A DNA stretch of 64,000 nt from Candidatus Bathyarchaeota archaeon (GCA_963769425.1 CAVYLP010000003.1:288001-352000); one strand, 5' to 3'; counted from the first letter of the stretch, positions 29,182 through 62,882 are shown. A program made the numbers and translations. The notes: generated from the sequence alone by a model not told the origin.

Positions 29182-29318
29182 ACCCCAGCCAGCGTTTGCG
29201 CGCGCGCTCGGAACTAATAAAGCAGTTTCATACTGATGTAGTTGTTATGAGAGAAAAGGAACGCGCGCGCAGGCATTCTCCAGTTCGCGCGATTGTTCAG
29301 TGTTTATGGATCTTGGGT

Positions 29319-29917
29319 CTTAGGTCGTGTCATAACGTATCGGGATCACTCAAAAGAACTGGACCAATAGAATCATAAGTCAAGATCTTCTTATCCCGCA
29401 CTCCATCGAATCTATAAATATCACTCAGGTTCTAGGTATTCTAATTATTAAGAAAATGAGCTTAGCGCACAAGCTCGGATAACCACTTCTTCATTACATT
29501 ATTTCTTTCGAGGCGCTCAAGCTCCTGTCTCACCGCTCTCGCTCTTTCCTCTATAGATCTAAGCCGGTTGATCATTTCAACGTTGGAATCGTTACCGCTC
29601 AACCCTCTCCCCCGTAGAAAAGATCAGATTTTTTCTTAATACACCTTAAGCACACATTGTTAGTTCAGATCAGTAGTCATTGAATACGGTTTTTGTTAAA
29701 TTTAACACATTCATGGGTTGATTTTCGTTATTACTTCTTAAATATATTCAATAATGGCTGTGAAACATCTAGCGATTTTTGGGTTCAAGTGCCCTGTAAA
29801 AATGACCTCTTCCTGTTAATCATCTTCCAATTTTCGCCGCATTGCTAACTGTTAGCAAACGGAGGTTCACGTGAATGATCGATGTAGGGCCTTAGGTCGT
29901 GTCATAACGTATCGGGA
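29319..29917. repeat. 27-bp direct repeat pair (probable mobile-element end or att site)
   Basis: CTTAGGTCGTGTCATAACGTATCGGGA at 29319-29345 and 29891-29917. Confidence 0.85.
29462..29602 (-). CDS. Small coiled-coil protein (46 aa)
   Basis: Manual translation MSGNDSNVEMINRLRSIEERARAVRQELERLERNNVMKKWLSELVR; G-rich SD before TTG. Confidence 0.45.
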   Translation of the reverse strand: MSGNDSNVEMINRLRSIEERARAVRQELERLERNNVMKKWLSELVR

Positions 29918-30540
29918 CCCGCGCGCGTATAAATAAATTAAAGTACTGTTCTCATGGATAATTAAAATCATTAATGTAAAAATAAAATTCATATTAAATA
30001 TTTATCTTTGTATAATGCAATTCCCGTTTCTAGCGGTATCAACAAGAATTTCCCAATGTAGGTCTCTAAAAAATTCATATCTTGGCTCGTCGCGCCATTC
30101 TCTTGACATCACTAAAAATTGCGTAGTTACTTTTTCGAAGGCTGCGCTATAATGACTGTCATGATGGGGAGTCTCCACCAGAAAATAAGGAACATTTCCA
30201 AATGTGCACGCGCAAAACAGTTACCCGAAATCTCACCAGCGTCCCGAAGAGACCACTTCACCATCTTTGTTAAGGCATTTCCTGATGCCTTAGACTACCT
30301 CATATCAACTTTCGCCCACAGACACAACCAAGTAAAAGGCTGAGAATCTCGCACCGTGAGCGTCTGAGCAAGCTGGTAAGAACGAAGGGACTTGAATCTA
30401 TATGGGTTCAGGTCCGTAAACTATTCGGAAAAGCCTCGGTTCCTGAAGCATCTATCAACTATTTGGACAATAAAAAATGGTAACTCATTTAGGAATATTT
30501 TTTTATTGGCACTATGTGACATCTATAAATCAGGCGTTAT

Positions 30541-31899
30541 TTACTTGGAGTTGAGAGCTTTAGCAAGCTTCACAGCTATTGCGGCCACGTCTTCCGCGGA
30601 TTCGCCTACGATAGTCACCATCGCCTCTTTACCCCAGTCTCCAACGTGGTAGATCGCGTCGGGGACTTTACCCGCCCTCCTGACTGCCTGCTCCGCGCCC
30701 CAGAATGTTGTTCCACCTTCACGGTTCTTTATTTCCGGTGGCTCCTGTCTTCGGTCGTAAAATGATACAGTGAGGCTCATCTCCTCGAGTTTTTTGATGA
30801 TGTCTTCTCCGTATCTAAGGTTTATTGCAGCTCTCTTAGAGTCCTCGAACGACTTTACTGCAAGTATTGTTCGGGCCACGTGGCTCGAAGCGCCGAATCG
30901 TGGGCAGCCAGTCGCCTTCACTCCATGGCTCATCCTCACTATTCGTCCCTCGATCGCGGCAATGTCCTTGATTCCAGTGGCGTAGGGGAGTGCCATACCG
31001 ATGTTCATCTGAACCTCAGCGACGAGGTCCCTCACCTCTGGACAGCTTTCCAGCATTAAGACGGCGTTTTGTAAGTTTTCTAGGACTTTGTATCTCTCTG
31101 CGTCGTTGAACAGCTTAGCTGCTGGGTTGAGTGGTCCGCTCCCTTTCCCGATTCTGAGACTGTATTTTATCGAGGTGTTGACGAAGTCCTTGGCCTCTGT
31201 TACCGATTCGGTTATCGTCTTACCCTTTGCTAATCCTGCTGCAATTGCTGAGGCGAAGCTACACCCTGTACCGTGTGTATCCTTTGTTTGGTGTCTTTCA
31301 CCAACAAGGAGGGAGAACTCCCCGTCGTGCAAGAGGATGTCGACTGCTTTATCTGTCTCGAATATGTGGCCGCCCTTCACAAGTACTGATTTCGGGCCCA
31401 TAGACTGGATTTTCTCGGCGGCTTTCTTACCGTCTTCAATAGTTGTTACTCTTACACCGGAGATTGCCTCGGCTTCCATGGCATTCGGGGTCACTACAGT
31501 CGCGAGTGGGAAGATCCTCTTGATGAGCGTCTCCTTAGCCTCCGGTAGGAGAAGTGGAGTGTTGCTCTTTGAGATCATCACCGGGTCTACGACGATGGGG
31601 CATTGTAGTTTCTCTAGTTCGTCGGCGACTGCGCCGATTATTTCGGAGGTGTGAAGCATTCCTGTCTTGACCGCATCTACGCCGATGTCGTCCACGACTG
31701 CTCTGATCTGGGCTTTGATTGAGTCGATTGGCAGGTCGTATACCGACCTTACTTCGACAGTGTTCTGGGCGGTCACCGATGTAATCGCTGACATTCCGTA
31801 CACCCCAAGGGCCATCATGGTCTTGAGGTCCTCCTGTATTCCGGCGCCGCCGCTCGAATCCGAGCCGGCGATCGTCAAGCATCTATATACTTTTCTCAT
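30541..31899 (-). CDS. thiD: Bifunctional HMP/HMP-P kinase and thiamine-phosphate synthase (ThiD-ThiN)
   Basis: IAGSDSSGGAGIQ, VKTGML, THGTGC; C-terminal ThiN FGASSHVAR, GDWGKE. Confidence 0.93.
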   Translation of the reverse strand: MRKVYRCLTIAGSDSSGGAGIQEDLKTMMALGVYGMSAITSVTAQNTVEVRSVYDLPIDSIKAQIRAVVDDIGVDAVKTGMLHTSEIIGAVADELEKLQCPIVVDPVMISKSNTPLLLPEAKETLIKRIFPLATVVTPNAMEAEAISGVRVTTIEDGKKAAEKIQSMGPKSVLVKGGHIFETDKAVDILLHDGEFSLLVGERHQTKDTHGTGCSFASAIAAGLAKGKTITESVTEAKDFVNTSIKYSLRIGKGSGPLNPAAKLFNDAERYKVLENLQNAVLMLESCPEVRDLVAEVQMNIGMALPYATGIKDIAAIEGRIVRMSHGVKATGCPRFGASSHVARTILAVKSFEDSKRAAINLRYGEDIIKKLEEMSLTVSFYDRRQEPPEIKNREGGTTFWGAEQAVRRAGKVPDAIYHVGDWGKEAMVTIVGESAEDVAAIAVKLAKALNSK

Positions 31900-31978
31900 G
31901 GCTTCACATCCTCTTCGTAGCAGGTCGATTCGTCTTTCCTTAAAACCTTGACTGATGCGTGGATTAGGTAAGGGTTTG

Positions 31979-32536
31979 TCATAGTTGTATCACCATATCC
32001 ATTTTCTCTGCGAGGCTTAGAACCAGCTTCTTCTCACGAGTTGATAAGCCGGTCCCAAGGTCGTTTTTAAGTCTCTCCCCGAGGTATGCATTCACTACTG
32101 CTGTTTCAGCTTTGGAGATTGTGGCTCTGAGAGTGTCTAACTCCCCTTTCTGCAAGTACATTGAGGCATCGTTTATGAACAGCACTTTGGTAGATACTTG
32201 GTTGAACTCCTCGAGAACTTTTTCTATCCTGACTCTGTTAGAGTCCGCTATTGATAGGAGTTCGTCCGGGTTCTTAGCAGTAAGTCTCGGGGCCTTAATG
32301 CCCAGAGGGATTAGTTGTCGGACTCCCTTGACCGGCTTCTCCAGCAGTCTGCCTCCAATTGAACCGTTTTCGGTCAAGACCTTACCAGGAGCCATATCTA
32401 TTAGTGTAATCTCCTCGTTTCCTCTTTCAAGTGCCTCGTTGAGGAGTTTCCTCGTAAGGGTAGTTTTCCCGGACCCGACCTCGCCTGTGATCAGGATACG
32501 TCTCCCGTGGACGGTGTCAAACGAAGTACTTGTCAA
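31979..32536 (-). CDS. Small P-loop NTPase in the thiamine operon
   Basis: ITGEVGSGKT Walker A, LFIND Walker B. Confidence 0.8.
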   Translation of the reverse strand: MTSTSFDTVHGRRILITGEVGSGKTTLTRKLLNEALERGNEEITLIDMAPGKVLTENGSIGGRLLEKPVKGVRQLIPLGIKAPRLTAKNPDELLSIADSNRVRIEKVLEEFNQVSTKVLFINDASMYLQKGELDTLRATISKAETAVVNAYLGERLKNDLGTGLSTREKKLVLSLAEKMDMVIQL

Positions 32537-33101
32537 GGCCCGATCTTCTCAGCAGTTTTATGATCATGAGTCCCAAGATTGAGCCGGGAATGCAGCTGGC
32601 GGCGAAGGCTATCCAGAAGAAGTAGAGTGTAGCTGATCCACCTATGAGGGGCGACACAATCAGCGCGCTTACAGTGGCGCCTATCACTACCGTTCCGAGT
32701 GGCTCCGCCAACGCAGCGTAGTCCGTCTTCCTAAGGTATCTGTAGACGATCCCGACTATCAATCCTCCAAAGACGCTTCCAGGGTACGCGTAGATTGTGC
32801 CAACGCCAAGGCCAACACGGATCGTCGCCGTCATAAACGCCATCACAACGGCGTACCATGGACCAAGAAGTATACCGGCTATGGCGTTTATCATATGCTG
32901 TGACGGAGCCACCTTCGTCACACCAATGGGGATGCTAAGTGATCCCAAGACAACGCTTAGAGCCGTAAGAACGGCGGCGAGTGCCAGCTTTCTGGTGGTA
33001 GATTGTTTAGGCCCCGCATTTGCGGTTGGTTCTTTAACTAAGTTCATTAAAAAGTTGACTAATTCCAACTTCTTACTGATTGGACTCGATCTGTTTTCCA
33101 T
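32517..33101 (-). CDS. thiW: ECF-type thiazole transporter S component ThiW
   Basis: PSQHMINAIAGILLGPWY, AYPGSVFG, EPLGT. Confidence 0.9.
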   Translation of the reverse strand: MENRSSPISKKLELVNFLMNLVKEPTANAGPKQSTTRKLALAAVLTALSVVLGSLSIPIGVTKVAPSQHMINAIAGILLGPWYAVVMAFMTATIRVGLGVGTIYAYPGSVFGGLIVGIVYRYLRKTDYAALAEPLGTVVIGATVSALIVSPLIGGSATLYFFWIAFAASCIPGSILGLMIIKLLRRSGLDKYFV

Positions 33102-33103
33102 TC

Positions 33104-33190
33104 TTCTTCCTCCGCCGGTATTATCCGGATCAGGTTCTAAGGGTCGACGTTTACCGTCCTCTCAGCCGGGATGATTCCCAGCTCCCCTTC
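33104..33190 (-). ncRNA. TPP riboswitch (THI element)
   Basis: Minus strand GGGGAGC...GCTGAGAGG...ACCCTTAGAACCTGATCCGGATAATACCGGCGGAGGAAG directly upstream of thiW ATG. Confidence 0.88.
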
Positions 33191-33251
33191 CACCTTGAAC
33201 CACACGCGGTATTAGATAAGAATTACTAAAAAGTGGATAGTGCTGGTTTAG

Positions 33252-34274
33252 CTATTTTATCCTTCTCGAAAGACGCCTCGCGATCTCGGAGGCTGTCTGA
33301 GCTACTTCGATTGGGTTTGTCCCGAAGATGAAGATCATCGGCTCCTTACCGATGCCTCCGAGATCATAGATAACGGTCGGCGGTTCTTTGCTTGTTGAGT
33401 GTGCTTTCCTGATTCCCCAAGGTATTGTCATTCCCTCGGTTGTTCTCACGTCTGGTGGCTCGTCTCTCCTGTCGAAGTGGGAGACAACGAGTCCAAGTTC
33501 TTCACATATATTTACGGCTTCGGCGTCGTACTTTAGACTCAGAGAGGATCGTAGTGTGGGCTGGAGGGACATCATAGTGAGTGTTGCCCGGGCGACGTGT
33601 GATGACCCGCCGAACTCGGGTGGTCTGGAGGATCGTGGGTACCCTCCTATCGGGTGTATCCTGCCAGGGATCCCTACGATGTCTTCTATGCTGTCTGCGT
33701 TGTGCTTTCCGTAGGTTATATTCATACCAATTTCAGGTATTAATGAGGCTAGTTCCCTGCAGCCCTCTATTATTCTGACGGCTTGCCTCACCCCATCTAT
33801 TATCTCTGCGTCTTCACGTGATCTCTGCTTGAACTTGGAGTAGTCCTCTATGCAGACAACGCAGTTGATTGGCAGTTCCCCGTAACCGTCGCGGTGGATT
33901 GCACAGATCGGTCCAGTGTTCCTCAGTTCTATGCATAATCCACAGACTCTTCTGATTGCTTCTGTTTCGGTGAGTCTGCTGCTCATCCAGTCCTCTGAAA
34001 GGTTCTTTGCAAGTTCATCTATCTTGGTGACTCCTCTTAGCTCAGATCTGGTTCGTGGTTGGCTGTGTAGGTAGCTTGAGACCGCTGGCTGGGTCACGCC
34101 GACGATCTTTGCGGCTTGTAGTTGGCTAACCCCTCGGTTGACAACTAGTTCCTCCACGAGGGCTTTCCTCATGAGTGGTAGCAGCTGCTCGGTGACGATC
34201 TCGCAGGGTAGTCTCAGCCTAACCTCGTCTCGTGAGGACCTCTTCGACTTCTCCAGCCCATCCATGGCGTTCAA
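33252..34274 (-). CDS. thiR: ThiR-type regulator (HTH + Cys-rich linker + ThiN-like sensor domain)
   Basis: PCE..., SQLQAAKIVGVTQPAVSSY HTH; FGGSSHVAR, GKEPMI. Confidence 0.85.
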   Translation of the reverse strand: MNAMDGLEKSKRSSRDEVRLRLPCEIVTEQLLPLMRKALVEELVVNRGVSQLQAAKIVGVTQPAVSSYLHSQPRTRSELRGVTKIDELAKNLSEDWMSSRLTETEAIRRVCGLCIELRNTGPICAIHRDGYGELPINCVVCIEDYSKFKQRSREDAEIIDGVRQAVRIIEGCRELASLIPEIGMNITYGKHNADSIEDIVGIPGRIHPIGGYPRSSRPPEFGGSSHVARATLTMMSLQPTLRSSLSLKYDAEAVNICEELGLVVSHFDRRDEPPDVRTTEGMTIPWGIRKAHSTSKEPPTVIYDLGGIGKEPMIFIFGTNPIEVAQTASEIARRLSRRIK

Positions 34275-34283
34275 TAAACGATG

Positions 34284-34300
34284 CTATAAGCTGCTTATAG
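34284..34300. promoter_or_regulatory. Palindrome CTATAAG-N3-CTTATAG, candidate ThiR operator
   Basis: Perfect inverted repeat ~10 bp upstream of thiR; same motif at 36753. Confidence 0.65.
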
Positions 34301-34310
34301 TGCTTCGTTT

Positions 34311-35087
34311 TTATCTGACGAGTTCCTCGACATCTTCCCACCACTTTTTTCGGGTTCCAACTTGGCTCCTCTTCTCCCAGTTAGTCGACTTTGGTTCAGA
34401 ATCGATCCTTGAGACTATTTCTCTGACCTTCGTTTTCAGCTCCGCAGGTTGTTCTATCTGGGTTTGCGGATCCTTTTCGACAAGTTTTGCTAGATTCTGA
34501 TTTGCGTCGAACCAGAAGCCCCAGTCGTCGGCTAGAACTGATGCTATCCTTGTGGTGTTTATTGATTCAGATGCATCCGTGTTAGTGAGGGGATGTTCTA
34601 GTATGAGTACTCGGAGGTCCGTCAGGTCCTTCTCCTCCAGGTTGTGTATCTGAAGCTTGGACAAGATCAAGTCGGCAATAGTTAGCGTTGGGTAGTCTAA
34701 CTCGATTCTAGGTGGCGCTCCTTCCGGTCTGAGGTTTATCAGGTGGTTGAAGTGTAGGTTTTCGAAGAAGATGTCCACCGTGTATTTGCCCTCTGGGTGG
34801 CGGAACATGAAGCGTGACTCGCCAAAGTATGCCATCACGTATCGGTCGGCGATGTAGCCTGCATCGGTGAATAGTTTGTTCACCCTGACTCTGTCCGACT
34901 TGTAGGTCACCATATCGACGTCCTTCAGCACGTTTATTCCACGTTTTGGAGTACCTAGTCGATTGGTGTGGTTGTGGAGTTCGACGGCTGCGCCGCCAGT
35001 GAGCCTCAGCGGGATCTGCCTCCGCTTCGCCTCCTCGACTAGTCTAAAGGCGTCGTCGAGGATTGACTTGGAATCAGGGCTCGGCAT
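34311..35087 (-). CDS. Pol-beta-like nucleotidyltransferase-fold protein
   Basis: LTGGAAV and KDVDMV, later VDIF, KLQI...KD motifs. Confidence 0.7.
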   Translation of the reverse strand: MPSPDSKSILDDAFRLVEEAKRRQIPLRLTGGAAVELHNHTNRLGTPKRGINVLKDVDMVTYKSDRVRVNKLFTDAGYIADRYVMAYFGESRFMFRHPEGKYTVDIFFENLHFNHLINLRPEGAPPRIELDYPTLTIADLILSKLQIHNLEEKDLTDLRVLILEHPLTNTDASESINTTRIASVLADDWGFWFDANQNLAKLVEKDPQTQIEQPAELKTKVREIVSRIDSEPKSTNWEKRSQVGTRKKWWEDVEELVR

Positions 35088-35097
35088 TTAACAAAAC

Positions 35098-36714
35098 CTA
35101 TACTGGGGGTATCTCTTTGAACGCGAGTTCTATATCGACTCCTTGTCGGGCTCTGATGTATCGTATTATCCAGTAGATAACAAAACCCACTATGATCATG
35201 CCGAAGTTGAGGAAGAGGGCATAGGGCGTCGAGATTCCGAATTGGGGGTTAGCGATGAATATGTAAGCGATTGCTACAACGAAGGATGCCTCAATTACTC
35301 CGAAGATCGTTATCAATGGGATCCCGAATAGCTCGCGCTTGATGGGTGATGCCTCGTAGATGTCCCTCCTCCTGTAGGGTAGGAGAGCTGCTGTTATTCC
35401 CGGGAGGAACATGCAGCTGAACGCGGGGCCGATTATAGTGGAGAATAGGAAGGTCCAGAAGGCATCCGGGAAGATGGCGACAACCACGAGGAAGGCTTCG
35501 CTGATCAGGAATATTGCGAGGTTCGTGTAGGTCGGCGTGTGGAACCTAGGACTCACATCTGAGAGCTTACCCGGCATCAGTCTGTCCATTGACCAGGCGA
35601 ATATGTTGCGACTGATTTGGAGATAGATGACGACGGTGTAGATTAGTGTACCCGCGAGGGCCATTCCGAGGACGGCGAGGGCAGCGAGTATCGGGTTCTG
35701 TGTGACGAGTCCGAGGAATGCGGTTATCATCTCCAACGCGTTGCTCCACGGCAACCCCTGGGGGTTGTACGTTGCAAGGTAGCTGACCGAGGTCAGGAAG
35801 TTGTACCCGATCGTCTTGAATGCGTAGTAGAAGAGGAGTCCGAGGAAGAGCAGGTTGAATAACCCTGCGCCGGCCATGGATATGAGGTTCCGCTTTACGG
35901 AGCCGGCCTCCTTCACCTCGCCTGCTATGTATGCTGAGTAGAACGTCCACCAGACCGCGTTAGTTGCCAGGGCCAGCAGGGGCCAGTCAAACGTGAATTT
36001 AGGTGTTGTATATCCTCCCTGGTTGGCCGCGTCTATGATGGCTTGATATGGGTTCGCAGTTGTTCCGAATTGGCCACCGTAGCTGTGCATGAATGAGTTG
36101 AAGATTCCGACGAATCCCTGATTGCCAACCAGTGCCATTGAGAGGAGGGCTACGGCTATGCCGACTATCATGATGAGCCAGATCGCGTTGTTTACGATCA
36201 GCATCCTCTTTGTGCCAGATAAGGCGAGAAGCGTGAAGATGACGTTCAGGACAGAGCCGACGAGGAAGGACACGAGGGGGGTCATTAGCGCCAGTCCTAT
36301 GTTGATGATGCCTTGGTTTCCCAGTAAGTATCCGATTATATGGAGGCCGGGGCCGAGTCCGTAGAAGCTAATAAGGTAGAAGTTGAACGCGAGGAAGAAT
36401 GTCTGCCAGAAGACGAGGCTGAAGTTGAAGCCGAACCCGAGTGATGGGTGGAGCACCCTACTGTTGAAGACGTAGTCGCCACCTGACCGTGGGAACGTTG
36501 AAACTAGCATGGCGTAGACTATCGCGATCGAGAAGGCAAGGAGCACCAGCGGTAGTGCGGAGAGGATGTCTCCGCCGCTTGTGAATGTGACGGCGAATGC
36601 GTAGTTTCCAAGCACTCCGGCGAATGAGCTCGCGGATGAGTTATAGATGAATGTGTCTAGGAGGGATGCCTGGCGGATGAGTCCCGAGGTCTTTCTCGAG
36701 AAGGGACTGGACAT
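35098..36714 (-). CDS. APC family permease
   Basis: FSRKTSGLIR, PRSGGDYVF, AGEVK, FAWSMDRLMP, FKEIPP; 12+ TM helices. Confidence 0.9.
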   Translation of the reverse strand: MSSPFSRKTSGLIRQASLLDTFIYNSSASSFAGVLGNYAFAVTFTSGGDILSALPLVLLAFSIAIVYAMLVSTFPRSGGDYVFNSRVLHPSLGFGFNFSLVFWQTFFLAFNFYLISFYGLGPGLHIIGYLLGNQGIINIGLALMTPLVSFLVGSVLNVIFTLLALSGTKRMLIVNNAIWLIMIVGIAVALLSMALVGNQGFVGIFNSFMHSYGGQFGTTANPYQAIIDAANQGGYTTPKFTFDWPLLALATNAVWWTFYSAYIAGEVKEAGSVKRNLISMAGAGLFNLLFLGLLFYYAFKTIGYNFLTSVSYLATYNPQGLPWSNALEMITAFLGLVTQNPILAALAVLGMALAGTLIYTVVIYLQISRNIFAWSMDRLMPGKLSDVSPRFHTPTYTNLAIFLISEAFLVVVAIFPDAFWTFLFSTIIGPAFSCMFLPGITAALLPYRRRDIYEASPIKRELFGIPLITIFGVIEASFVVAIAYIFIANPQFGISTPYALFLNFGMIIVGFVIYWIIRYIRARQGVDIELAFKEIPPV

Positions 36715-36752
36715 TGGGTTATTGGGTCAACGGTTGTAGTTATAAGTAATTA

Positions 36753-36767
36753 TATAAGTGACTTATA
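36753..36767. promoter_or_regulatory. Palindrome TATAAG-TGA-CTTATA in divergent promoter, candidate ThiR operator
   Basis: Matches the 34284 palindrome; extra half-site TATAAG at 36741. Confidence 0.6.
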
Positions 36768-36780
36768 ATGAGCTGAGGTT

Positions 36781-37731: not shown

Positions 37732-37747
37732 GGCTACGCGTAAGCGG

Positions 37748-38410
37748 TTGGAGGATAGGCTTCATAGAAGCGAGGTGGTCGCAGCGGTGGAGCAGATGGG
37801 TGCGACGGTTGCTCATAATCTTCGCGGTCCGCTGGGTCAGGTTGTTCAGGCTGTGAACATGATCAAGCAGGACCCCAGTTTGACTCCTCGGATGCTTCAG
37901 ATTATTGAGGAGAACTCGGTGAGGTCGTTGAAGATGATTGCTGATTGGAGGTCGAGCACTCGGGAGATTGTACCACAGCCGACGAAGACCTCTCTTCGTG
38001 ACTTGGTTAGGAGCGTGCTTGAAGGTTTGCCAGTCCCAATTAACGTGGATGCTCATACTTCTATTGGAGATGATCTTGACTCTCTATTGATTGATCAGAT
38101 GATCATGCACAGAGTGCTGGACAACTTGGTGAAGAACTCGGTCGAGGCGATGCCGAACGGTGGGAAGCTGGTGGTCAGCGCGGTGAAGGAGACTGATGAC
38201 CTAGTAATCAGGGTTGCTGATACCGTTGTAGGTATACCCGAGGAGTCAAGGGAGCATATCTTCTCCCCTCTGTATACTACTAAGACGGGTGGAATGGGGC
38301 TAGGGCTAACTTACTGCAGGAGGGTTATTGAGGCGATGGGTGGCTCAATCAACTTCGAATCCGAAGTTGGCGTTGGCACCACCTTCACAGTGATGCTGCC
38401 TCTGCAATAA
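37748..38410 (+). pseudogene. 5'-truncated sensor histidine kinase (HisKA + HATPase only)
   Basis: AHNLRGPL, NLVKNSVEAM, GMGLGL; G1 box degenerate (DTVVG); no sensor domain. Confidence 0.75.
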
Positions 38411-40751: not shown

Positions 40752-40794
40752 ACGGTATGAGAAACGTTTTCAGGAATAGACCGTGAGGGTGTCG

Positions 40795-54541: not shown

Positions 54542-54581
54542 AGCAGCTCTGATCCTCCTATGATTCTTGAGGTTTTAAGAC

Positions 54582-55319
54582 TCACGGGTGTGCTGCGAGG
54601 TCGGCGACAGATGAGAGGCGGTGAACGCCTCGGGTTTTCTCCACATTAGCTGGTCCCACGATTATAGAGGAAGGAAAACCGGCTGCCTCCGCAGCCTCAG
54701 CATCCACTGACTGATCCCCGACGTAGACCGCTTCCGACGGACTGAATCCAGCTTTCTTACATGCTACGAGGAGGAGGTCCGGCGAGGGCTTAGGATTAAG
54801 GGTGTCCTCCGAGCCGGCCACGACCCCAAACAAGTCTCTGATCTTCAGTATCTTGAGCAGCTCCTCGGTGATGACGGTTGACCCATTCGTGGCTATTCCG
54901 AGTGAGAATCCGGCCTCCCTGACTCGACGTAAACCCGCCTCTGTTCCGGGGAATAATCGGGGGGTGTAATCCCTCATCTGGATTGTGTCAGCGTCGGTAT
55001 ATGCTAACTCGGCCAGTTTCCTAGCCTCGTGCCAACCATGCCCAATAGTGTAGATAGCTGCCGCAGCGATGGCCATGTCCTCCCTCCGCGCGGCCTTCGC
55101 GATCGCGCCTGTCATGTCGATGACCTTCTTCTTCGGGTCGTATCCACCGAGCGGCGCCCAGACCTCAGCGGCGGCGCGGCCCGCCCTCGCGACGAGGGCA
55201 TCGAACCGAAGGGCCGCGAGGCTCTTGTATCGGTCCGCATCGTCCACAAGCGTTCCGTCAACATCGAACAGAACTAGCTTGACCCTGAGCTCATCACCAT
55301 CGACCACAAGCGCCAGCAT
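54582..55319 (-). CDS. HAD-family hydrolase
   Basis: FDVDGTL, IATN, KPSP, VGD. Confidence 0.88.
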   Translation of the reverse strand: MLALVVDGDELRVKLVLFDVDGTLVDDADRYKSLAALRFDALVARAGRAAAEVWAPLGGYDPKKKVIDMTGAIAKAARREDMAIAAAAIYTIGHGWHEARKLAELAYTDADTIQMRDYTPRLFPGTEAGLRRVREAGFSLGIATNGSTVITEELLKILKIRDLFGVVAGSEDTLNPKPSPDLLLVACKKAGFSPSEAVYVGDQSVDAEAAEAAGFPSSIIVGPANVEKTRGVHRLSSVADLAAHP

Positions 55320-55412
55320 ATGTCAACCACTCGTCCAAGGACTTGCTGATCTAGCTCACAACTGGTAACTTTTAAGTACCTTCGTCCCTAAGCTGTATCT
55401 GGGAACACAGTA

Positions 55413-55640
55413 ATGGCAACGGCATTCGTGTTGATAAACGCGGAGATCGGCGCGGAGACCGAGGTGCTGAAGGGGCTCAAGGACATCAAAGAGGTCAGAG
55501 AAGCCCACATGGTCTACGGAGTCTACGACATCATCGCACGCATCGAGACAGACACGATGCAGGAGCTCAAAGACATCATAAGCTGGAAGATCAGGCGCCT
55601 CGACAAGGTGCGCAGCACGCTGACGATGATTGTGGTCTGA
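55413..55640 (+). CDS. Stand-alone Lrp/AsnC ligand-binding domain protein
   Basis: AFVLIN...VYGVYD...VRSTLTMIV. Confidence 0.9.
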   Translation: MATAFVLINAEIGAETEVLKGLKDIKEVREAHMVYGVYDIIARIETDTMQELKDIISWKIRRLDKVRSTLTMIVV

Positions 55641-55841
55641 TACAATACACGACGATTAACATTTTTATGTTAACCCATTCACTTAATTAGGGTATTTCTA
55701 CTCGGTGGGTGTTCTCCCTTAGGCGATGTATATATGAATAAAACTAATATAATGGGACTAATTGTTTCAATTTAGTCGAACATCCCCATAAAAACCGAAT
55801 AAGCTATTAAACCTCGGTGTGGAATTTATCCTGAATAGATA

Positions 55842-56192
55842 ATGGCTAAGGAAATAGTGTCTGGAAACCTCGAGGGTCAGAAATTAAGATTACAAGTCTA
55901 TAAACATGAAGATTTGAGTCCGATCTATGCAGATGGTGCATTCATAAAACCCGCTAATGGAAGAGCTCTCATTCTAGACTTTTTTTCAGGCGAATACCCT
56001 TACGTCGATCAGACCGGGAGGTTAAAAGCAGATGGAACGGGGGATGCAATTGTAAATGAAGTTCCAGAAGAATTTATCTATATTAGAACGATCCATTCAT
56101 CAATAGTGTTAACACTTGAAAATGCAGAAGTATTAAAAAATCAATTAGAAGAAAATATAAAGGCTTTAAAAGCACAAATTAAGGTTGATTAA
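55842..56192 (+). CDS. DUF3467-like small protein
   Basis: PIYADGA...LILDF...SIVLTLENAEVLKNQLEENI pattern; AT-rich. Confidence 0.55.
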   Translation: MAKEIVSGNLEGQKLRLQVYKHEDLSPIYADGAFIKPANGRALILDFFSGEYPYVDQTGRLKADGTGDAIVNEVPEEFIYIRTIHSSIVLTLENAEVLKNQLEENIKALKAQIKVD

Positions 56193-56194
56193 AA

Positions 56195-56545
56195 TTGGAA
56201 CAATTTATATCTTTAGATAATCAGCGTGGAGTAGAAGTTCCTACTAAGATTCCGAAACCATATACATTTGATGAGAAGTTAAGCGTTTTTCAAAAAGTTG
56301 TAATTGAGAACATGGTTAATCCGAATTTATCTCAGCAAACATATTTCAACATAAAATTAATTACTTTAAGACCAGAGTTCTTTAATAAAAACTTGATAAT
56401 GCCGGTGCAAAATGCAATAAAAGGGCTGGAAAGTGAAGATATTCTTAACATGGTTCAATGTGTTTCAATTAAATCATTAAAATCATTAGTTGAAAAGGAT
56501 AATGACATTTATTCGGAAGAGGATGTTAAGGCAAGATATGTATGA
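56195..56545 (+). CDS. Probable antitoxin
   Basis: Acidic C-terminus DNDIYSEEDV; overlaps the toxin start (ATGA). Confidence 0.55.
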   Translation: MEQFISLDNQRGVEVPTKIPKPYTFDEKLSVFQKVVIENMVNPNLSQQTYFNIKLITLRPEFFNKNLIMPVQNAIKGLESEDILNMVQCVSIKSLKSLVEKDNDIYSEEDVKARYV

Positions 56546-56877
56546 AAGGAGATATTATATTACTACAGTTTCCATATACGGATGATCTAAGTAAATATAA
56601 AATAAGACCTTCGTTAGTTTTATATGATAATGGACTTGATGTTACTGCTGCTTATATTAGTTCAAAAGAAGAAAAATATGATCCAAAATGTCATTTATTA
56701 ATCGAACAAACTCATGCAGAATATCCAATGACTGGTTTAAAAGAAGATTCCATTATTAGGCTTGATAAAATATTTACCTTGGATCATTCTTACATTAAAG
56801 GGTGGAGGGGTAAGCTAGGAACATCTATAAAAACAGAGTTTAATAGACTTTTTTCCCACTTGTATTACATACCCTAA
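56542..56877 (+). CDS. PemK/MazF family endoribonuclease toxin
   Basis: MKGDIILLQFPYTD...KIRPSLV, TGLKEDSIIRLDKIFT. Confidence 0.88.
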   Translation: MKGDIILLQFPYTDDLSKYKIRPSLVLYDNGLDVTAAYISSKEEKYDPKCHLLIEQTHAEYPMTGLKEDSIIRLDKIFTLDHSYIKGWRGKLGTSIKTEFNRLFSHLYYIP

Positions 56878-57158
56878 ATCAATCTAATTGCATTATCTTT
56901 AATATATTCACCTCCAGCTCGTTTACAGATTGAACAAAAGCCTACTCTTTTGTTTGCTTCGTTGTGCTTGTCTTACTGGCTTTTAATTGATGCTGGGCTT
57001 CTGTCCTTGAGTGCTGCTATCTTACCCATCGAGATCTTGTCGTTGAGGTAGAGCTTCAGGATCTCAACATGCTCCTCATCTCCGATGGTATTGAAGGCTC
57101 CCCTCTCCTCACAATACTTGAGCTCCCTAGTCTTGATGATTTTATCCAGTTGCTTCAA
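56874..57158 (-). pseudogene. HTH + CxxC protein with premature stop
   Basis: SMGKIAALKDRSPASIKSQ* continues in frame DKHNEANKRVGFCSICKR. Confidence 0.55.
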
Positions 57159-57258
57159 AAGACATGTGCTGAAAAACTACCATGAATAGCATAATCTAGT
57201 GATCCCTTCTTTGGCCCTCTGCGTGTTTTGCTATTGATCAAGGTCTAGTTCTCGTAGC

Positions 57259-57520
57259 TCATCTGTTTTCATCTTCTAGGGGCGCGTCGGGTTTTGGCGT
57301 AGCCACGTCGGTTATGAATAATGGAAGTAGGCTATCGATCGCTTTCTCTTTCTCAGTGTAGGCTACCTTATCAGCCCACTCTAGGAGGACGTTAACAAGG
57401 CTCCGGTATGGTTGAGTTACTCCCCTGATCTTTATCTCAAGAACCTCATGGAGTAGCGTCTCCATGGCGTCCTCTGGATCCTTATCATAGACTAGGATTA
57501 GTACAATTGATATGATAGTC
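57259..57520 (-). pseudogene. 5'-truncated hypothetical protein remnant
   Basis: ILVYDKDPEDAMETLLHEVLE...; frame continues upstream of the Met with no start. Confidence 0.4.
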
Positions 57521-57564
57521 GTCTAAAACCGCTACTTTTCAGCTGGCCTTTTTAGGTCGGCTTC

Positions 57565-58047
57565 TTAGAGCTTAAAACTCATTTTAAGACCCATTACTTC
57601 ATCGTTCTCCATTACTAGGCGTTCTTTCCCGAAGCTCCAGCGGGGGAAATGGCTGAGGACATCCATACCTAGTAGACTGAAGACGAGTTCCTTGGGGAGG
57701 GGCGCATAGTTGGGCCCCGGGGGGAGGACGGCGAGGTTCTCCATCGGGAATGTCACGTAAGCGCGCTTGTTATCCAAGAGACCAACCTGGACGGGGAGAA
57801 CTACCTCCGCATTATGGATGACCTTGAGGTTAACGGGACCATTAGCAGTTACTATGGTCTTCGTGACTGTTTGGAGGTCTCCATGCTCGATTCTGAGCCT
57901 CATGACGTCATCGGGTAGTATGCATGAGTTACTGCATCCTGTGTCTACGAGGAAGGTGATGGGTTGGTTGATGTGATTCGGCGAATACCTGATATACCCC
58001 TCGACTCGGGCTTGCTTTAGCTTGTCTATGCGCCCTATGAGTCTCAT
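57565..58047 (-). CDS. Retropepsin-like (clan AA) aspartic protease
   Basis: FLVDTG and LLGMDVL motifs. Confidence 0.82.
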   Translation of the reverse strand: MRLIGRIDKLKQARVEGYIRYSPNHINQPITFLVDTGCSNSCILPDDVMRLRIEHGDLQTVTKTIVTANGPVNLKVIHNAEVVLPVQVGLLDNKRAYVTFPMENLAVLPPGPNYAPLPKELVFSLLGMDVLSHFPRWSFGKERLVMENDEVMGLKMSFKL

Positions 58048-58546
58048 AGCACCCGTAAATTTATTACTAACAACCTTATAGAACTTTTTATTATCACAAT
58101 ACCAGATTATAATGAAAAACACCATATGTATGATATATAATATCTCATCTAATGATCCGCTCAGTATCATTGTGCGAAAATTTCATCACAGAACTCATCA
58201 AATGGACTTTTTCACAAGATCATCTCTTCAAATCCAGATAAACTATCATTAATTACTCCCTAAAGATTAACCTACATAAAGACTATAATATTAAAAATGA
58301 ATTCTCAGGTAAAACACTCAAACCACATTAAACCTAGGCTAAATTAGTCGCGGCAATATTAATTTTAGGAATATCTGCAGGTTATATGTATTTTAACAAA
58401 CAGACTCAATCGGTGAACACGGGTCAAGAAGGGAACTCGTTGCTCAATTTTTAGAGGAGTTTCATAAGATGAGGGGCTTACAAGTTACATTATTTGAAAA
58501 AGATATGGTTTAAAAGAGCTTCAATCATCAATCGAAGCGAACCCTG

Positions 58547-59863
58547 TTGCTGCTCCACATCGGAATCGATGACACCGACTCCCCCGAGGGCGGCTGCACG
58601 ACCTATATCGCTGCGCTCTTAGTAGAGCAGCTAGAGGATATGGGGTGTAGGTTTATCGATTACCCGAACCTTCTGAGGCTAAACCCCAACGCGCCCTGGA
58701 AGACGAGGGGAAACGGGGCGATCTGTCTCCGCTTGGAGGCCCCCGAGGGAAGGGAATCCGAGATCAAAAAAGCAGTCATAGATGTGGTCGAGGCAAACGC
58801 TGAGTTTCGGTGTGATAACACGAACCCTGGCGTCGTCTTCCACGTTGGCGAAGTCCCAGCCGAGTTGAAGGAATTCTACATAGATGTCGTCCAAACTATA
58901 GTCCATCTCGAGGACGCGGAGCGTCTGATTACTGAATACTCCGCGTCCGCGGTGGCGTGGAAGAATAGGAGGGGTCTCATCGGCGCGCTGGCCGCGGTCG
59001 GGGGCACGTTAGAGGGGGATCACACGTATGAGCTGCTCACCTACAGGGTGGCGGAAAACAGAGGCACAACGAGAGTTATTGACGGCGACTCGGTGAGGAG
59101 AATCGAGGCGACCAAAGGAGACACGTTCAATAGCGTTGACCCCGAGACGGGGCAAGTGCTTATCGCCCCCCGTGGCCCAGACCCGGTTCTCTATGGCGTA
59201 AGGGGGGAGACCAGTTCATCAGTCCTCTCGGCTATGAGGGGGATAATCGTCGGGGAACCTGTCGAGAGGTGGGTTATCTTCCGAACCAACCAGGGTACCG
59301 ACGCTCACCTTGCACGAGCATACCGGATATCTGAGCTAAAGCCACGCTACCCATCCATCGTTACGGGCATCGTCGAGGGAGGATGCAGGATCATCGAGGG
59401 GGGCCACGTCATCTTCACCATAGGGGATGGCTCCGGGAGCCTGGATTGCGCGGCCTATGAGCCATCCGGGGGCTTCAGGGAAGTGTCCATGAGGCTCAGG
59501 GCCGGTGACGAGATCAGGGTGGCTGGCGGCGTCAGGGAGACCGTTTTTGGGATCACGCTCAATTTAGAGAGGCTTGAGGTCCTGACCATGGAATCCGAGC
59601 AGAGGTTTGTTAATCCCCGCTGCCCAGAGTGCGGGGGACCCACAGAGTCCATGGGGAAGGGGCAAGGGCTCCGGTGCAAGATGTGTGGCTACAGGGGAGC
59701 TGATCTGGTGAGGGTATCCCAGGAGGTTCCGCGGGAGATCAAGCCGGGGCTCTACCTCCCACCACCCAGGGCAGAGAGACATCTTACCAAGCCCCTGAAG
59801 AGGTATGGTAAAGAAAAGAAGGGAGTCACGACCCGAATCGAGGCCCCCTGGCACGGAGAGTAA
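58547..59863 (+). CDS. tiaS: tRNA(Ile2) 2-agmatinylcytidine synthetase
   Basis: IGIDDTDS, GGCTT, PWKTRGNG, TNQGTD, CPECG...CKMCG, RHLTKP. Confidence 0.95.
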   Translation: MLLHIGIDDTDSPEGGCTTYIAALLVEQLEDMGCRFIDYPNLLRLNPNAPWKTRGNGAICLRLEAPEGRESEIKKAVIDVVEANAEFRCDNTNPGVVFHVGEVPAELKEFYIDVVQTIVHLEDAERLITEYSASAVAWKNRRGLIGALAAVGGTLEGDHTYELLTYRVAENRGTTRVIDGDSVRRIEATKGDTFNSVDPETGQVLIAPRGPDPVLYGVRGETSSSVLSAMRGIIVGEPVERWVIFRTNQGTDAHLARAYRISELKPRYPSIVTGIVEGGCRIIEGGHVIFTIGDGSGSLDCAAYEPSGGFREVSMRLRAGDEIRVAGGVRETVFGITLNLERLEVLTMESEQRFVNPRCPECGGPTESMGKGQGLRCKMCGYRGADLVRVSQEVPREIKPGLYLPPPRAERHLTKPLKRYGKEKKGVTTRIEAPWHGE

Positions 59864-59973
59864 TTATACTTCTTATGGTGTCGCGACCATGCTCGACGAT
59901 TATCATGAAAATTGAACTAAGACGCATTACATTCTGGATCAGGCTTTAATTTTCCAGAACCTTCTCCACCTAT

Positions 59974-60141
59974 ATGCAGAAACCAAAGTGCCCAAAATGC
60001 GGCTCCGAGGACCTCGAAGACGACATGATAACCATATACGGGATCTGGGGGGAGCTCGTGGACACGGAGCAAGTTAAGAAGTGTAAGAGGTGCGGGGAAG
60101 TGATCAGGGAGGGTGAGAAGCATGAAGACGAGTCTACCTAA
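59974..60141 (+). CDS. Small CPxCG zinc-finger protein (55 aa)
   Basis: Manual translation MQKPKCPKCGSEDL...KCKRCGEV... Confidence 0.6.
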   Translation: MQKPKCPKCGSEDLEDDMITIYGIWGELVDTEQVKKCKRCGEVIREGEKHEDEST

Positions 60142-60225
60142 GGAGAGGTACAGCCAGGCCGGACCGATAGCGCCAACCGTGATGGTTACCTGCGTTGAAT
60201 TATCTGGGAAGGCGAATATAATCAG
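60122..60225 (+). pseudogene. N-terminal fragment of a flavin reductase paralog
   Basis: QAGPIAPTVMVTC...GKANII mirrors the N-terminus of the 60345 gene, then diverges. Confidence 0.7.
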
Positions 60226-60344
60226 ATTCTGTTTTTATAGATTCCGAAAATCACTTTTCAGATATAATTTGTATCCAAAAGATCAGGCATCTAGATTCGG
60301 CTTCTGAGCTAATATTTTTAATCTGTTAGATCCACGAACATCTC

Positions 60345-60878
60345 ATGTCCAAGGTTGAGTTGCGTAAGGATAAGATGCTGCAGGCTGGACCTGCAGGGAA
60401 CATCGTAATGGTAACGTGTTGCGATAAAAACGGTCGAGCAAACATCATCACGGCTGGCATGTATATGCCAATCAGTAGCAACCCGCCTCAAGTATGCATA
60501 GGCATCGCGCCTGAGAGATATAGCCACAACTTGATTCTAGAACAGGGAGAGTTTGTAGTCAACTCACCAAGTATTACGTTGAAAGAGAAGATGCATTTAT
60601 GCGGAATCAAGTCGGGGAGAGACATTGACAAGTTCAAGGAGTTCGGGTTGACTCCGATCCCCGCGAGAAAGGTCAGGCCTCCACTAATCAAGGAGTGCTT
60701 TGGACATATCGAGTGTGAAGTAGTCAACCGCGTTATCTGCGGCGACCATACGCTCTTTGTTGGACAGGTTGTATCAGCCACAGCAGACAAGGAAGTGTTA
60801 GATGGCGGGAACCTTGATGTTTTGAAGGCTCAGCCGATAATTCAGAAGAATCACTTGTATTATACGATAAAGTCTTAA
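60345..60878 (+). CDS. Flavin reductase-like (flavoredoxin) protein
   Basis: GEFVVN, CGIKSGRDIDKF, PPLIKEC, GDHTLFVG. Confidence 0.9.
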   Translation: MSKVELRKDKMLQAGPAGNIVMVTCCDKNGRANIITAGMYMPISSNPPQVCIGIAPERYSHNLILEQGEFVVNSPSITLKEKMHLCGIKSGRDIDKFKEFGLTPIPARKVRPPLIKECFGHIECEVVNRVICGDHTLFVGQVVSATADKEVLDGGNLDVLKAQPIIQKNHLYYTIKS

Positions 60879-60974
60879 CAGTTCATTAAAATGGGGTAAA
60901 AAGGCAGGAAGTTGGGTACCAACCCGCAATCCTGTGCAAATACTCGCGAACACTTATGGGTAGAGCAGGAAAAA

Positions 60975-61199
60975 TTACCCCTCATATTCATCAGGCAACT
61001 GTCTGGAAAGGTCACCGATATCGTCATTTGGACCATAACTTCTCGCATGGAATTGTAATGGTCTTGATCTCTCAACAATGTGACCACATGAGGGACATCT
61101 CCACCTCATCGTGTCCTCTCCAGTCCAATTGATTCCTACAAATATCCGATTTTCTTGATGCGACCACGTAGTTTTACATTGCCTGCAGATGACCTTCAT
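60975..61199 (-). CDS. Small zinc-ribbon protein
   Basis: CRQC...CPSCG. Confidence 0.55.
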   Translation of the reverse strand: MKVICRQCKTTWSHQENRIFVGINWTGEDTMRWRCPSCGHIVERSRPLQFHARSYGPNDDIGDLSRQLPDEYEG

Positions 61200-61316
61200 C
61201 TAATCACAGTTATAGTTAGTATGATGTGATAATAAGATTTCTCTACTTTACCTAAAAATACATCTCTCGGATACAAGAGTTGGAAAAACTTGATGAAGAG
61301 TAAATAATTATGCGCG

Positions 61317-61821
61317 CCGCCTCGTCTCTTTATTGATTAATACCGGTTCTAAACGGTCATAACCCTCATCTTCATGGCTGAGAGGACTCCCTGAACGTCC
61401 TCCCTGAGGCTCACTTCCCCCCGCTTGCCACGATGTTTCCCCATAAGTGGTAACCACTAATAAGGTGTTTCCACGTGGACACCCTTCACACCGATGAATG
61501 AACACATCCAAACCGGGTTACGCCTCCGATTGAACGGCGTCCACTCAACCCGCCTCTATTCACATCGTTCAATGAACCGCGATCCACGCCCTTCAATGGG
61601 TGTTGAAGGCACACGGAATGCAACGGTTTTCAATAGATATTCAACGGTTTTCAACGCGTTTCAGATGGTTCCGGCGACGCGTCCCCGACGACTCCGCTAT
61701 ATATAGCTGAATATATGGAACAGGATCTCGATGAAAGAAGGGTCCATTTTAGTGTCTTATTTAGCGTAATTGTGTTTAGGATAATTTTAGACCGTCTATT
61801 ATCAATCTAGGGACAAGGCAG
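61317..61821. mobile_element. MITE-like or deleted relative of the 39488 IS
   Basis: ATCAATCTAGGGACAAGGCAG (61801-61821) matches the IS end 20/21; degenerate opposite TIR at 61317-61337 (16/21); CG-repeat flanks. Confidence 0.6.
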
Positions 61822-61881
61822 CGCGCACTCGAAGGACTCTATTTATTTGCACGGGTTTCACCATGTTACCTCATAGCATCC

Positions 61882-62484
61882 ATGTTGGGTCTCTCAAGCA
61901 TCTGGCGTGCTCTCAAACGGGCGAGACCGGCGATCCTCTCGATCGCCGTTTTATACGTTCTGTCTCTCCTCGTCGGCGCCGTCATGGTGCAGACCGGGTA
62001 CCAGCCGTCGCTGGCATACAGGGATTACATCGTCTCTAGAGCCCAGAGCGACCCGACGCTGATAGCGTTGAACAGCGGCGACAGGCTCGGCGCGGCGTTG
62101 AGGGACTTTTACGGGAACCTTGTCCTCGGGGCTGTGCCGAATACCCTCGGCGGACTCGGCGTCGTCTTCCCTTACCCCCTCGTTGCGTATCAGGGTTGGA
62201 TCGGTGGCATAGTCTCGGTGAACAGCGCCCACGTCAGCAGGCTGGCCACTTTCTCTGGAGGCTTTTACTACCTCGCGACCCTCGTGCTCCAACTCGTGCC
62301 CTACTCCCTGGCTGCGGGCGCCGGGGTCAATCTCGGGTTATCTCTTTGGCGTAAACAAACGTATTACGAGGGGGAGCGCTGGCTTGGTTTCCCGAGGGAG
62401 GCCGTGCTAGATGTTCTTAGGATATACGCGCTAGTCGTCCCCCTGTTCCTGGTCGCCTCCCTCTGGGAGTTCCTAGCAGTGTAA
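61882..62484 (+). CDS. SpoIIM-like membrane protein
   Basis: Multi-TM; C-terminal LFLVASLWE. Confidence 0.7.
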   Translation: MLGLSSIWRALKRARPAILSIAVLYVLSLLVGAVMVQTGYQPSLAYRDYIVSRAQSDPTLIALNSGDRLGAALRDFYGNLVLGAVPNTLGGLGVVFPYPLVAYQGWIGGIVSVNSAHVSRLATFSGGFYYLATLVLQLVPYSLAAGAGVNLGLSLWRKQTYYEGERWLGFPREAVLDVLRIYALVVPLFLVASLWEFLAV

Positions 62485-62514
62485 AAATAAGGCACGAAAA
62501 AGGGGTTAGTTGCG

Positions 62515-62882
62515 CATCAGGGAGCAGGGAGAGTTCGTCGTCAATTCTCCCGGCATTGGGATTTGCGGATAAGATGCACGTCTGCGGGGTGAAGTCGGGG
62601 AAGGACGTCGATAAGTGGAGGGAAGCAGGGCCGACGCCATTCCCGCGCAAGAAGGTGAGGCCGCTACTCATCGAAGAGTGCTAAGGGCACATCGAGTGTG
62701 AGGTCGTGAACATGGTTACCTGCGGAGACCACACACTTTTTGTTGGGGAAGTTGTGGCCGCTAGAATAGACGAAGACTGTCTAAAGGCTGGTAAGCAAGA
62801 CCTCGAGAAGGCTAAGCCTATGGCCAAGAAGAACTGGGATTACCACACTCTGAGAAAACAGCCTCTCACCAACCTCAAATAA
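62515..62882 (+). pseudogene. C-terminal fragment of a flavin reductase paralog with internal stop
   Basis: EQGEFVVNSP...KMHVCGVKSGKDVDK...EEC*GHIECEV...GDHTLFVG. Confidence 0.75.

Follow-up and report, generated by a model that had tools for sequence, protein, structure and literature searches.

Why do unrelated blocks of DNA in an archaeal genome meet at short alternating runs of C and G? The question is raised by a window of 64,000 nucleotides from Candidatus Bathyarchaeota archaeon, the whole stretch analyzed here, which corresponds to C3:288001-352000 of a metagenome-assembled genome (MAG; source genome G000, 2.55 Mb in six contigs, 91% complete, 4.9% contamination); positions are counted from the window start. 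A first-pass annotation had listed 17 alternating purine-pyrimidine (RY) strings between 29197 and 62517, and had proposed that an insertion sequence (IS) family prefers such sites and left them as scars at module junctions and gene truncation points. All 17 strings were located at exactly the positions listed. The list mixes three things, namely (CG)n runs, copies of a local motif (CACGTGCA), and generic RY runs. [quoted passage not shown] A domain search detected the archaeal markers TiaS and ThiN within the window, whose GC content was ~0.60 up to 24 kb and 0.40-0.60, lower for the most part, in the remainder.

Run counts were compared with expectation in intergenic DNA, which was defined by a crude mask that treated greedy open reading frames (ORFs) of at least 80 amino acids as coding. 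The intergenic part of 29197-62517 (8005 bp) held 32 RY runs of at least 8 nt against 21.3 ± 4.4 in dinucleotide shuffles (32 was reached in 2 of 200 shuffles) and 12 of at least 10 nt against 4.7 ± 2.2 (reached in 1 of 200). No excess was observed in the coding DNA of the same region (53 against 60.5 expected) or in the intergenic DNA of 1-29196 (8 against 6.9 expected). Genome-wide, intergenic RY runs of at least 8, 10, and 12 nt numbered 992, 284, and 83, with 868, 185, and 38.8 expected. The corresponding counts were 99, 48, and 21 for runs with a (CG)3 core (37, 12, and 3.4 expected) and 790, 212, and 56 for mixed RY runs (757, 151, and 30 expected), the first of these being at expectation. 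The RY excess is carried mostly by the (CG)3-core runs, and the general RY framing is weak.

Pure CG runs of at least 8 nt numbered 41 in intergenic DNA, which makes up 15% of the genome, against 3.5 ± 1.8 in an order-1 and 8.5 ± 3.0 in an order-3 Markov model. Coding DNA held 47 such runs and showed no excess (84.5 and 44 expected, respectively). The same test gave 41 AT runs (11.8 and 19.8 expected), 13 AC/GT runs (7.1 and 9.3), and 15 AG/CT runs (23.2 and 16.6); general microsatellite slippage was rejected because these other dinucleotide repeats were not comparably enriched. Among hexamers with five or six G/C, CGCGCG (2.8x) and GCGCGC (2.1x) had the highest intergenic bias, and other GC palindromic hexamers reached 0.4-0.8x. 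Intergenic DNA held 0.11 CG runs of at least 8 nt per kb. Within the window, nine CG runs of at least 7 nt lay in a 21-kb island (29182-50225, described below), two in 1-29181, and none in 50226-64000. These counts show that the (CG)n tracts in AT-rich spacers are a strongly non-random, CG-specific, intergenic feature. The expected enrichment of RY runs over a shuffled background was borne out strongly for intergenic (CG)n and only modestly for the RY class as a whole.

The best candidate for a user of these tracts is an IS5-superfamily IS on the minus strand at 39488-40751, with a transposase gene at 39677-40516 and inverted repeats (CTGCCTTGTCCCTAAAT and ATTTAGGGACAGGGCAG) at 39488-39508 and 40734-40751. 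The transposase (279 aa) matched Pfam DDE_Tnp_1 (PF01609; 68.4 bits, E 9.1e-19, cut-off 23). It scored below all NCBIfam IS5/IS1182 cut-offs (NF033551, 75.2 against 270; NF033581, 51.1 against 140; NF033580, 44.1 against 110) and is therefore a divergent member of the IS5/IS1182 superfamily. A second full copy, 80% identical, lies at C3:52075-53338, and partial copies occur on C4 and C2. The genome was compared with 17-18 congeners (labeled G001 onward), of which G002, G006, G017, and G008 are the closest (82-83% DNA identity in shared genes); IS5-like copies were present in 11 of 17. The relatives found for the transposase came from Bathyarchaeia/Bathyarchaeota MAGs, which describes the host range. 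A MITE at 61318-61820 carries the IS5-like inverted repeat and is flanked by GCGCGC at 61312-61317 and 61821-61826. The listed tracts at 61310 and 61821 are therefore the two flanks of this one MITE. Its family of ~500 bp lacks a transposase gene, shares CTGYCTTGTCCC with the ends of the IS5-like element, and comprises ~12 full or partial copies with 81-92% identity, among them those at C6:89664-90169, C6:853724-854233, and ~10 other places, which are 86-92% identical.

All clear IS and MITE ends in the source genome were preceded by (G)CGCG. The left flank of the IS5-like element reads (A)CGCGCG (CGCGCG at 39482-39487), and GCGCGCG (42059-42065) forms the right flank of the pair that it makes with an adjoining IS110-family element. 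In other Bathyarchaeia MAGs, CGCG stood directly outside the repeat at 33 of 36 ends (21 loci), the exceptions being TGCG twice and GCAG once. A second IS subfamily in such MAGs, with 44% transposase identity and a different repeat (CTAGCCTGTT), was CGCG-flanked too. At the ends examined no direct repeat was present outside the CG run, and position -6 outward was variable; any target duplication is therefore CG or CGCG, and we infer its size only to this extent. The 7-bp duplication ACGCGCG that had been assigned to the element was not seen, as only CGCGCG is common to both flanks. The proposed site preference of the IS family thus survives for (G)CGCG(C), on the strength of the 33 ends and the two unoccupied sites below, and not for RY alternation in general.

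Two unoccupied sites were found. At the first, on contig C52 of G012, an orthologue of the ORF at 38960-39352 (80% identity) is followed by 136 nt, CGCGCGCGCG, and then ATAACACGTGCAT. In the window, this ORF is followed by 129 nt, CGCGCG, the IS5-like element, the IS110-family element, GCGCGCG, and then AAGAACACGGGCAT; 11 of the 13 positions adjoining the tract agree between the two genomes. The second, at C6:1003708, reads AAT-GCGCGCGCGC-AGATTG; the 776 bp preceding it and the left flank of the IS copy at C3:52075 show 100% identity. Its occupied counterpart on C3 reads AAT-GCGCG, IS, CGCGCG-ATAAGAC, and then unrelated DNA. The duplicated segment shared by the two contigs (4.9 kb, 97% identical; C3:47191-52075 and C6:1008587-1003708) ends exactly at the tract or the IS. 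Tracts measured 10 nt at unoccupied sites and 11-13 nt at occupied ones. Since both unoccupied sites have a (CG)5 tract where the IS sits elsewhere, the IS targets such tracts, and the presence of the tract without the IS means that, in some cases at least, it is a target rather than a scar. As judged from sequence comparison, the Bathyarchaeia IS5-superfamily element and its MITEs insert into (CG)n tracts.

Unoccupied sites were also sought in five congeners for two IS copies of G016, whose flanks had no syntenic match there, and the congener comparisons yielded no set of alleles in which filled, footprint, and never-filled states of a site were represented. Contigs from four metagenome runs, which held 6-14% of words and give no evidence for the parts that they leave uncovered, included none that skips the IS. 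One contig alone joined one inverted repeat to the other (39505 to 40747); its short side has just 24 letters, and this was considered too weak and was not used. The whole segmental duplication between C3 and C6 extends over ~6.8 kb (C3:45281-52075 and C6:1003708-1011169), with 88% identity farther out. This gradient suggests that conversion or recombination took place recently at the IS end, or possibly reflects mis-binning or an assembly artifact.

The window region in which most of the tracts lie is a mosaic island at 29182-50225, which contains thiamine genes, a permease, a His-kinase fragment, the IS pair, and a redox/MFS block. It is absent from seven loci of six congeners, in which 29181 is joined within 2-930 bp to window 50343-50782; the island is therefore specific to the source genome among the genomes compared. 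In G002, G017, G011, and contig C49 of G006, the Peptidase_M55 stop (29181) lies 2-80 bp from a match to window 50623-50782, and in G003, G015, and contig C319 of G006 a gap of 800-930 bp encodes a thioredoxin-like protein and a full CcdA/DsbD-like protein. The GC content of the island is 0.46-0.54, compared with ~0.60 to its left. Among 43 ORFs no integrase domain was found, nor was a tRNA, and the island's only end repeats are the (CG)5 tracts.

At the left joint, a (GC)5 tract (29198-29207; GCGCGCGCGC) begins 16 nt past the Peptidase_M55 stop. The relatives have no such tract after this stop, except G011, in which one stands at a different distance in a short M55-GH4 spacer that has no trx-ccdA pair. 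At the right joint, a (CG)4.5 tract (50217-50225; ACGCGCGCGC, ending at 50225) precedes the point at which CcdA homology resumes (50226); where this point falls in the intact CcdA genes carried by G003, G015, and G006, CGCG is missing. Inside the island, TACGCGTA (37735-37742) separates a metallophosphoesterase gene (stop at 37731) from the His-kinase fragment. The block to its left is syntenic in contig C312 of G006 (31148-37734) and contig C62 of G012 (33252-37734); both alignments end at 37734, and the bases that follow in these contigs lack CGCG. According to these alignments, CGCG-containing tracts foreign to the genes they join stand at both outer joints and at one or more inner joints. 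The view of the island as a strain-specific mosaic bounded by tracts that are non-native to the flanking genes is upheld.

Three pseudogenes had been described as truncated at such tracts, and NCBIfam matches, translation, and DNA alignments agree on the truncation points. The His-kinase fragment (37748-38410, plus strand) retains only the C-terminal 220 aa, with Pfam HATPase_c and a weak HisKA match; NCBIfam kinase models of 460-616 residues match it through their last ~220 positions, and the G002 homologue aligns from 37738. The CcdA/DsbD-like pseudogene (50226-50746, plus strand), whose translation was aligned by eye with the 217-aa G003 protein, lacks its first ~41 codons and has one in-frame stop and a frameshift. 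The third is a flavin-reductase orthologue, recognized by alignment to relatives, whose 5' part (60113-60224) and 3' part (62515-62683, with a frameshift and a stop) lie on the plus strand on either side of a 2.29-kb insertion (60225-62514); the right joint falls inside TGCG|CAT. The insertion carries a paralogous flavin reductase (60345-60878), the MITE, and a SpoIIM-like ORF, and replaces 83-93 bp of the orthologue. It is absent in G002, G008, contig C10 of G006, and contig C5 of G009, in which the flavin reductase is intact. As markers of module junctions, the tracts hold good at the outer island joints, the IS pair, both MITE ends, and 37735; the case is weak at 62511, and four joint ends listed below have no tract.

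The preference for (CG)n suggests a scheme for how these joints arose. The transposase would cut inside a (G)CGCG(C) site, leaving GCGCG to the left and CGCGC to the right of every copy, and the target duplication would be palindromic and 2 or 4 bp long, as with Escherichia coli IS5 at CTAG. Elements would accumulate in intergenic, mostly accessory DNA, because genes contain few (CG)n runs and spacers many. Recombination between copies, or adjacent deletions made by the transposase, could then join unrelated DNA at tracts. Such a scheme would account for the tract-bounded island, the CcdA and His-kinase genes cut at CGCG, and the edge of the 4.9-kb segment. It is supported as well by contig C33 of G002, which has a solo inverted repeat with CGCGCGC at a joint where the source genome has 4.4 kb of other DNA, and by a MITE on C6 that stands, with intact GCGCG ends, in place of 383 bp of a gene. 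For the island joints themselves, we infer that these elements made them when copies recombined, adjacent DNA was deleted, and elements were later lost.

Several observations weigh against this reading. Tracts are missing at four joint ends in the window (55638/55639, 57511/57512, 60224/60225, and 46019) and at both ends of a 1-kb insertion on C6, and neither island joint retains an IS remnant. Most tracts have no recognizable IS or MITE end: a motif resembling the inverted repeat adjoins 10 of 175 intergenic CG runs of at least 6 nt (0.39 expected), and with an nhmmer profile of the repeat an end adjoins 6 of 85 runs of at least 7 nt and 2 of 41 of at least 8 nt. The IS explains the tracts in part only; for tracts other than the 10 of 175, the term scar is therefore conjectural. 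Counts of CGCGCGCG in 18 congeners, ranging from 1 to 429, do not follow the counts of the inverted repeat, and five congeners with no match to the repeat still hold 41-148. At C6:390070, a palindrome, CCCGCGCGCGGG, is conserved in a promoter-like position 37 nt upstream of an ATG. The MITE at C6:89669-90164 stands in place of 383 bp of a gene that G008 has in full; each of its ends retains GCGCG, although CGCG is missing from both joints in G008. These ends fit GCGCG as a part of the element equally well as a target duplication. At the G012 site, flank similarity gives out ~13 nt from the tract (global alignment against shuffles, z 1.2 and 0.1), and orthology of the site is based on the 13 nt adjoining the tract and the upstream ORF only. 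Finally, genes were masked only crudely, and the sequence comes from a MAG whose completeness and contamination are given above.

Rather than being chosen by the elements, the tracts may have been made by them. Loss through recombination between CGCG flanks, or excision, would leave a (CG)3-5 footprint, and solo tracts would be graves. We regard this as unlikely, although it accounts for several of our observations. The joint tracts at 29198, 50217, and 37735 are non-native to the flanking genes, and the C6 MITE has GCGCG where the G008 joints have none. Tract density per kb of spacer is 0.27-0.39 on C1-C4 and 0.13 on C6, i.e., 2-3 times higher on the former, with none on C5, and the tracts fill mosaic regions of low synteny; two tract-rich regions of 19 kb are nearly without synteny to five congeners. 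In one of these, ACGCGCACGCA stands at one joint and GCGCGCGCG 48 nt from another, with none at the others. Among even-length runs of at least 8 nt, 22 are in the GC phase and 7 in the CG phase, a bias that a G|CGCG|C target would predict. This explanation is opposed by the 10-nt tract that stands without an IS at both unoccupied sites, by the lack of an allelic series, by the 41-148 copies of the (CG)4 string in genomes with no match to the inverted repeat, and by the absence of repeat remnants beside solo tracts beyond the 10 of 175. A self-renewing address system, in which insertion and loss lengthen or plant tracts that in turn recruit insertions and join blocks, seems to us a shade more doubtful again; accessory DNA would then be organized as (CG)n-bounded cassettes, possibly with help from Z-DNA.

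Z-DNA-forming (CG)n tracts are hotspots of genetic instability, and the runs described here likewise lie at deletion and insertion joints; they are only 8-12 nt long, and what was seen is the sequence potential of (CG)4-6 alone. The tracts could be fragile or recombinogenic through Z-DNA or through microhomology of 8-10 nt, so that rearrangement proceeds without the IS, which merely shares the preference. We consider this quite improbable. Both island joints, which have no IS remnant, and the edge of the C6/C3 segment lie at tracts, and the G011 tract occurs in a spacer without the trx-ccdA pair, as this explanation would have it. Six C6 tracts of at least 8 nt were compared with five congeners, and for two of them (C6:201706 and C6:51801) homology breaks off at the tract, where no IS is present. 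Joining by microhomology would require the joint tracts to be native to one partner, and they are native to neither; an IS is also present at the C3 edge. Because an IS with a sequence-specific preference explains the link between tracts and joints, Z-DNA is not needed for the association. Of the remaining four C6 tracts, one is the conserved palindrome, one lies 80 nt from a decayed MITE end, one is at a place where a second-subfamily MITE alone matches, and one has no match.

A role of the tracts in protein binding or transcription, with their closeness to joints a coincidence, is less probable still. The C6:390070 palindrome, which a TTTAAT box closely follows and which is a candidate operator, recurs unchanged in G002, G015, and G017 and is 2 nt shorter in G008; no alignment of this region was obtained in G006. 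A 3' end lay within 30 nt for 16 of 68 tracts and a 5' end for 2 of 56, which is a bias toward 3' ends, convergent spacers hold 34% of tracts and 21% of intergenic bp, and four CACGTGCA sites cluster in one block. This role fits poorly with the finding that only one of the six C6 tracts tested was conserved in place and that relatives do not share the tracts found after the M55 gene. A 5-mer test of 170 flanks genome-wide revealed no shared flanking motif, and at 0.11 per kb the occurrence of CG runs of at least 8 nt at both ends of one island would be very improbable. A motif, ATGA[AG][AG], that stands 8-20 nt upstream of many of the listed tracts was absent genome-wide in the 170 flanks and was dismissed as a coincidence of the window. 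Chance and composition, with RY strings simply picked from AT-rich spacers, can be given next to no weight, for although mixed RY runs of at least 8 nt are at expectation (790 against 757), several listed strings are only 7-9 nt long, and (TA)n-containing runs reflect TATA-like promoters, mixed runs exceed expectation at 10 nt and above (212 against 151) and at 12 nt and above (56 against 30), CG runs are 5-12 times above it, which refutes chance for the (CG)n subset, and the IS flanks and unoccupied sites are specific.

E. coli IS5 provides the nearest mechanistic model for the targeting reading. It duplicates a tetranucleotide, which was CTAG in 15 of the 24 insertions listed in one report (PMC5493358). 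The two elements are alike in their DDE_Tnp_1 transposase with a DUF772-like N-terminus, length of ~1.2 kb, terminal inverted repeats, and a short palindromic tetranucleotide site, which is duplicated in the insertions so reported for IS5 (PMC5493358). They differ in that the site here is CGCG inside a longer (CG)n run instead of CTAG, in the Bathyarchaeia host range, and in the transposase, whose best score was 75 bits against an NCBIfam cut-off of 270. Fixed short palindromic targets are also used by IS630/Tc1-mariner elements, which insert at TA, and by PIF/Harbinger elements, which insert at TWA. As in these groups, a palindromic target flanks every copy and MITEs share the inverted repeats; their transposases are unrelated or distant, and their targets are AT-rich whereas those described here are GC-rich. 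Literature outside subscription journals and ISfinder yielded no CGCG-targeting IS, no comparable tract excess, and nothing on IS or MITE targeting in Bathyarchaeota or on a link between Z-DNA and IS targets. The main text of a 2026 survey of archaeal IS contains none of the terms "Bathyarchae", "target site", "TSD", and "CGCG". Bathyarchaeia are abundant uncultured archaea of sediment and peat whose genome dynamics are known almost only from MAGs. A GC-rich, tract-specific IS target would be an unusual target choice and would explain where accessory DNA has been joined, and (CG)n of at least 8 nt in spacers would serve as a marker for rearrangement-prone sites and assembly breakpoints. If the elements instead make the tracts, intergenic sequence would here have been shaped by transposon footprints, a situation rare among prokaryotes.

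The IS110-family element (40752-42058, plus strand; NF033542, 270.3 bits, cut-off 140; PF01548 and PF02371, DEDD_Tnp_IS110 and Transposase_20) is placed precisely between the right inverted repeat of the IS5-like element and the CGCG flank. An identical junction was observed at four loci, namely the window, C4:252648, and L014 and L018 in relatives. Because one exact position recurs in four loci, the IS110 element appears to target the IS5-like end itself. Some IS110-family elements insert into the ends of other repeats, and the single precise junction seen here is of this kind; the element is a passenger of the phenomenon rather than its cause. Over the two IS elements, metagenome contig depth rose by factors of tens to hundreds, which is what multicopy elements in a community should produce. 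A MITE-like repeat of ~130 bp with the repeat of the second IS subfamily lies at C6:30987-31119, bounded by CGCGCGC and GCGCGC, and also at C3:76499-76600, with copies in G002, G006, G008, and G015. G001 and G010 (1.6-1.8 Mb) contain the (CG)4 string only once each, and others 41-429 times, for which very different GC content or site avoidance is possible.

The CACGTGCA motif occurs four times in 7.8 kb, at 43754-43761 (plus strand), 42238-42245 (minus strand), 46530-46537, and 50022-50029, and is shared by the listed strings at 42237, 43749, 46528, and 50022. Genome-wide it has 31 copies, of which seven are intergenic, and four of these seven lie within 42238-50029. It is mostly CACGTGCAT, half of the palindrome ATGCACGTGCAT. 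Three of the sites stand just beyond gene 3' ends and one in a divergent promoter, in a gene block of Fer4, Pyr_redox_2, MFS, and FAD_binding_2. These strings are a separate local motif or chance, and not part of the CG-run phenomenon. A composite element of (CG)n plus CACGTG was rejected, as it was present at 1 of 175 tracts with 1.0 expected. The listed strings at 47933, 48479, 38481, and 30202 may be promoter-region sequence or chance.

Further tracts of the island are a (CG)4.5 tract at 29262-29270, 54 nt inside it, another at 45033-45041 between convergent genes, CGCGCGC at 50035-50041, beside a CACGTGCAC motif and a T7 run and 27-40 nt past the FAD_binding_2 stop, and a (CG)4 tract at 29920-29927. 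A 40-bp direct repeat (29306-29345 and 29878-29917; 90% identical at a spacing of 572 bp) lies within the first 1.3 kb of the island, where ORFs are few, and the last of these tracts directly follows its second copy; this repeat had no other copy in the genome and belonged to no repeat family. Window 42068-46500 had no DNA match in the genus. Peat metagenome contigs from three runs (X1-X3) were ~97% identical to 42064-46019; one begins to match at 42064, inside the tract of the right IS flank, and two part from the window sequence at 46019, a point without a tract.

A strain-specific insertion of 1.87 kb at 55639-57511 has an ~18-bp imperfect direct repeat and no CG tract. It contains a PemK/MazF-like toxin ORF (56542-56877) and two 116-aa ORFs without an assigned family, and its repeat duplicates the 3' end of a 75-aa Lrp/AsnC-like ORF. 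The arrangement looks like site-specific integration unrelated to CG tracts. In the thiamine block of the island, a thiamine pyrophosphate (TPP) riboswitch (33090-33198, minus strand; Rfam RF00059, 61.6 bits) lies upstream of a ThiW-like transporter gene.

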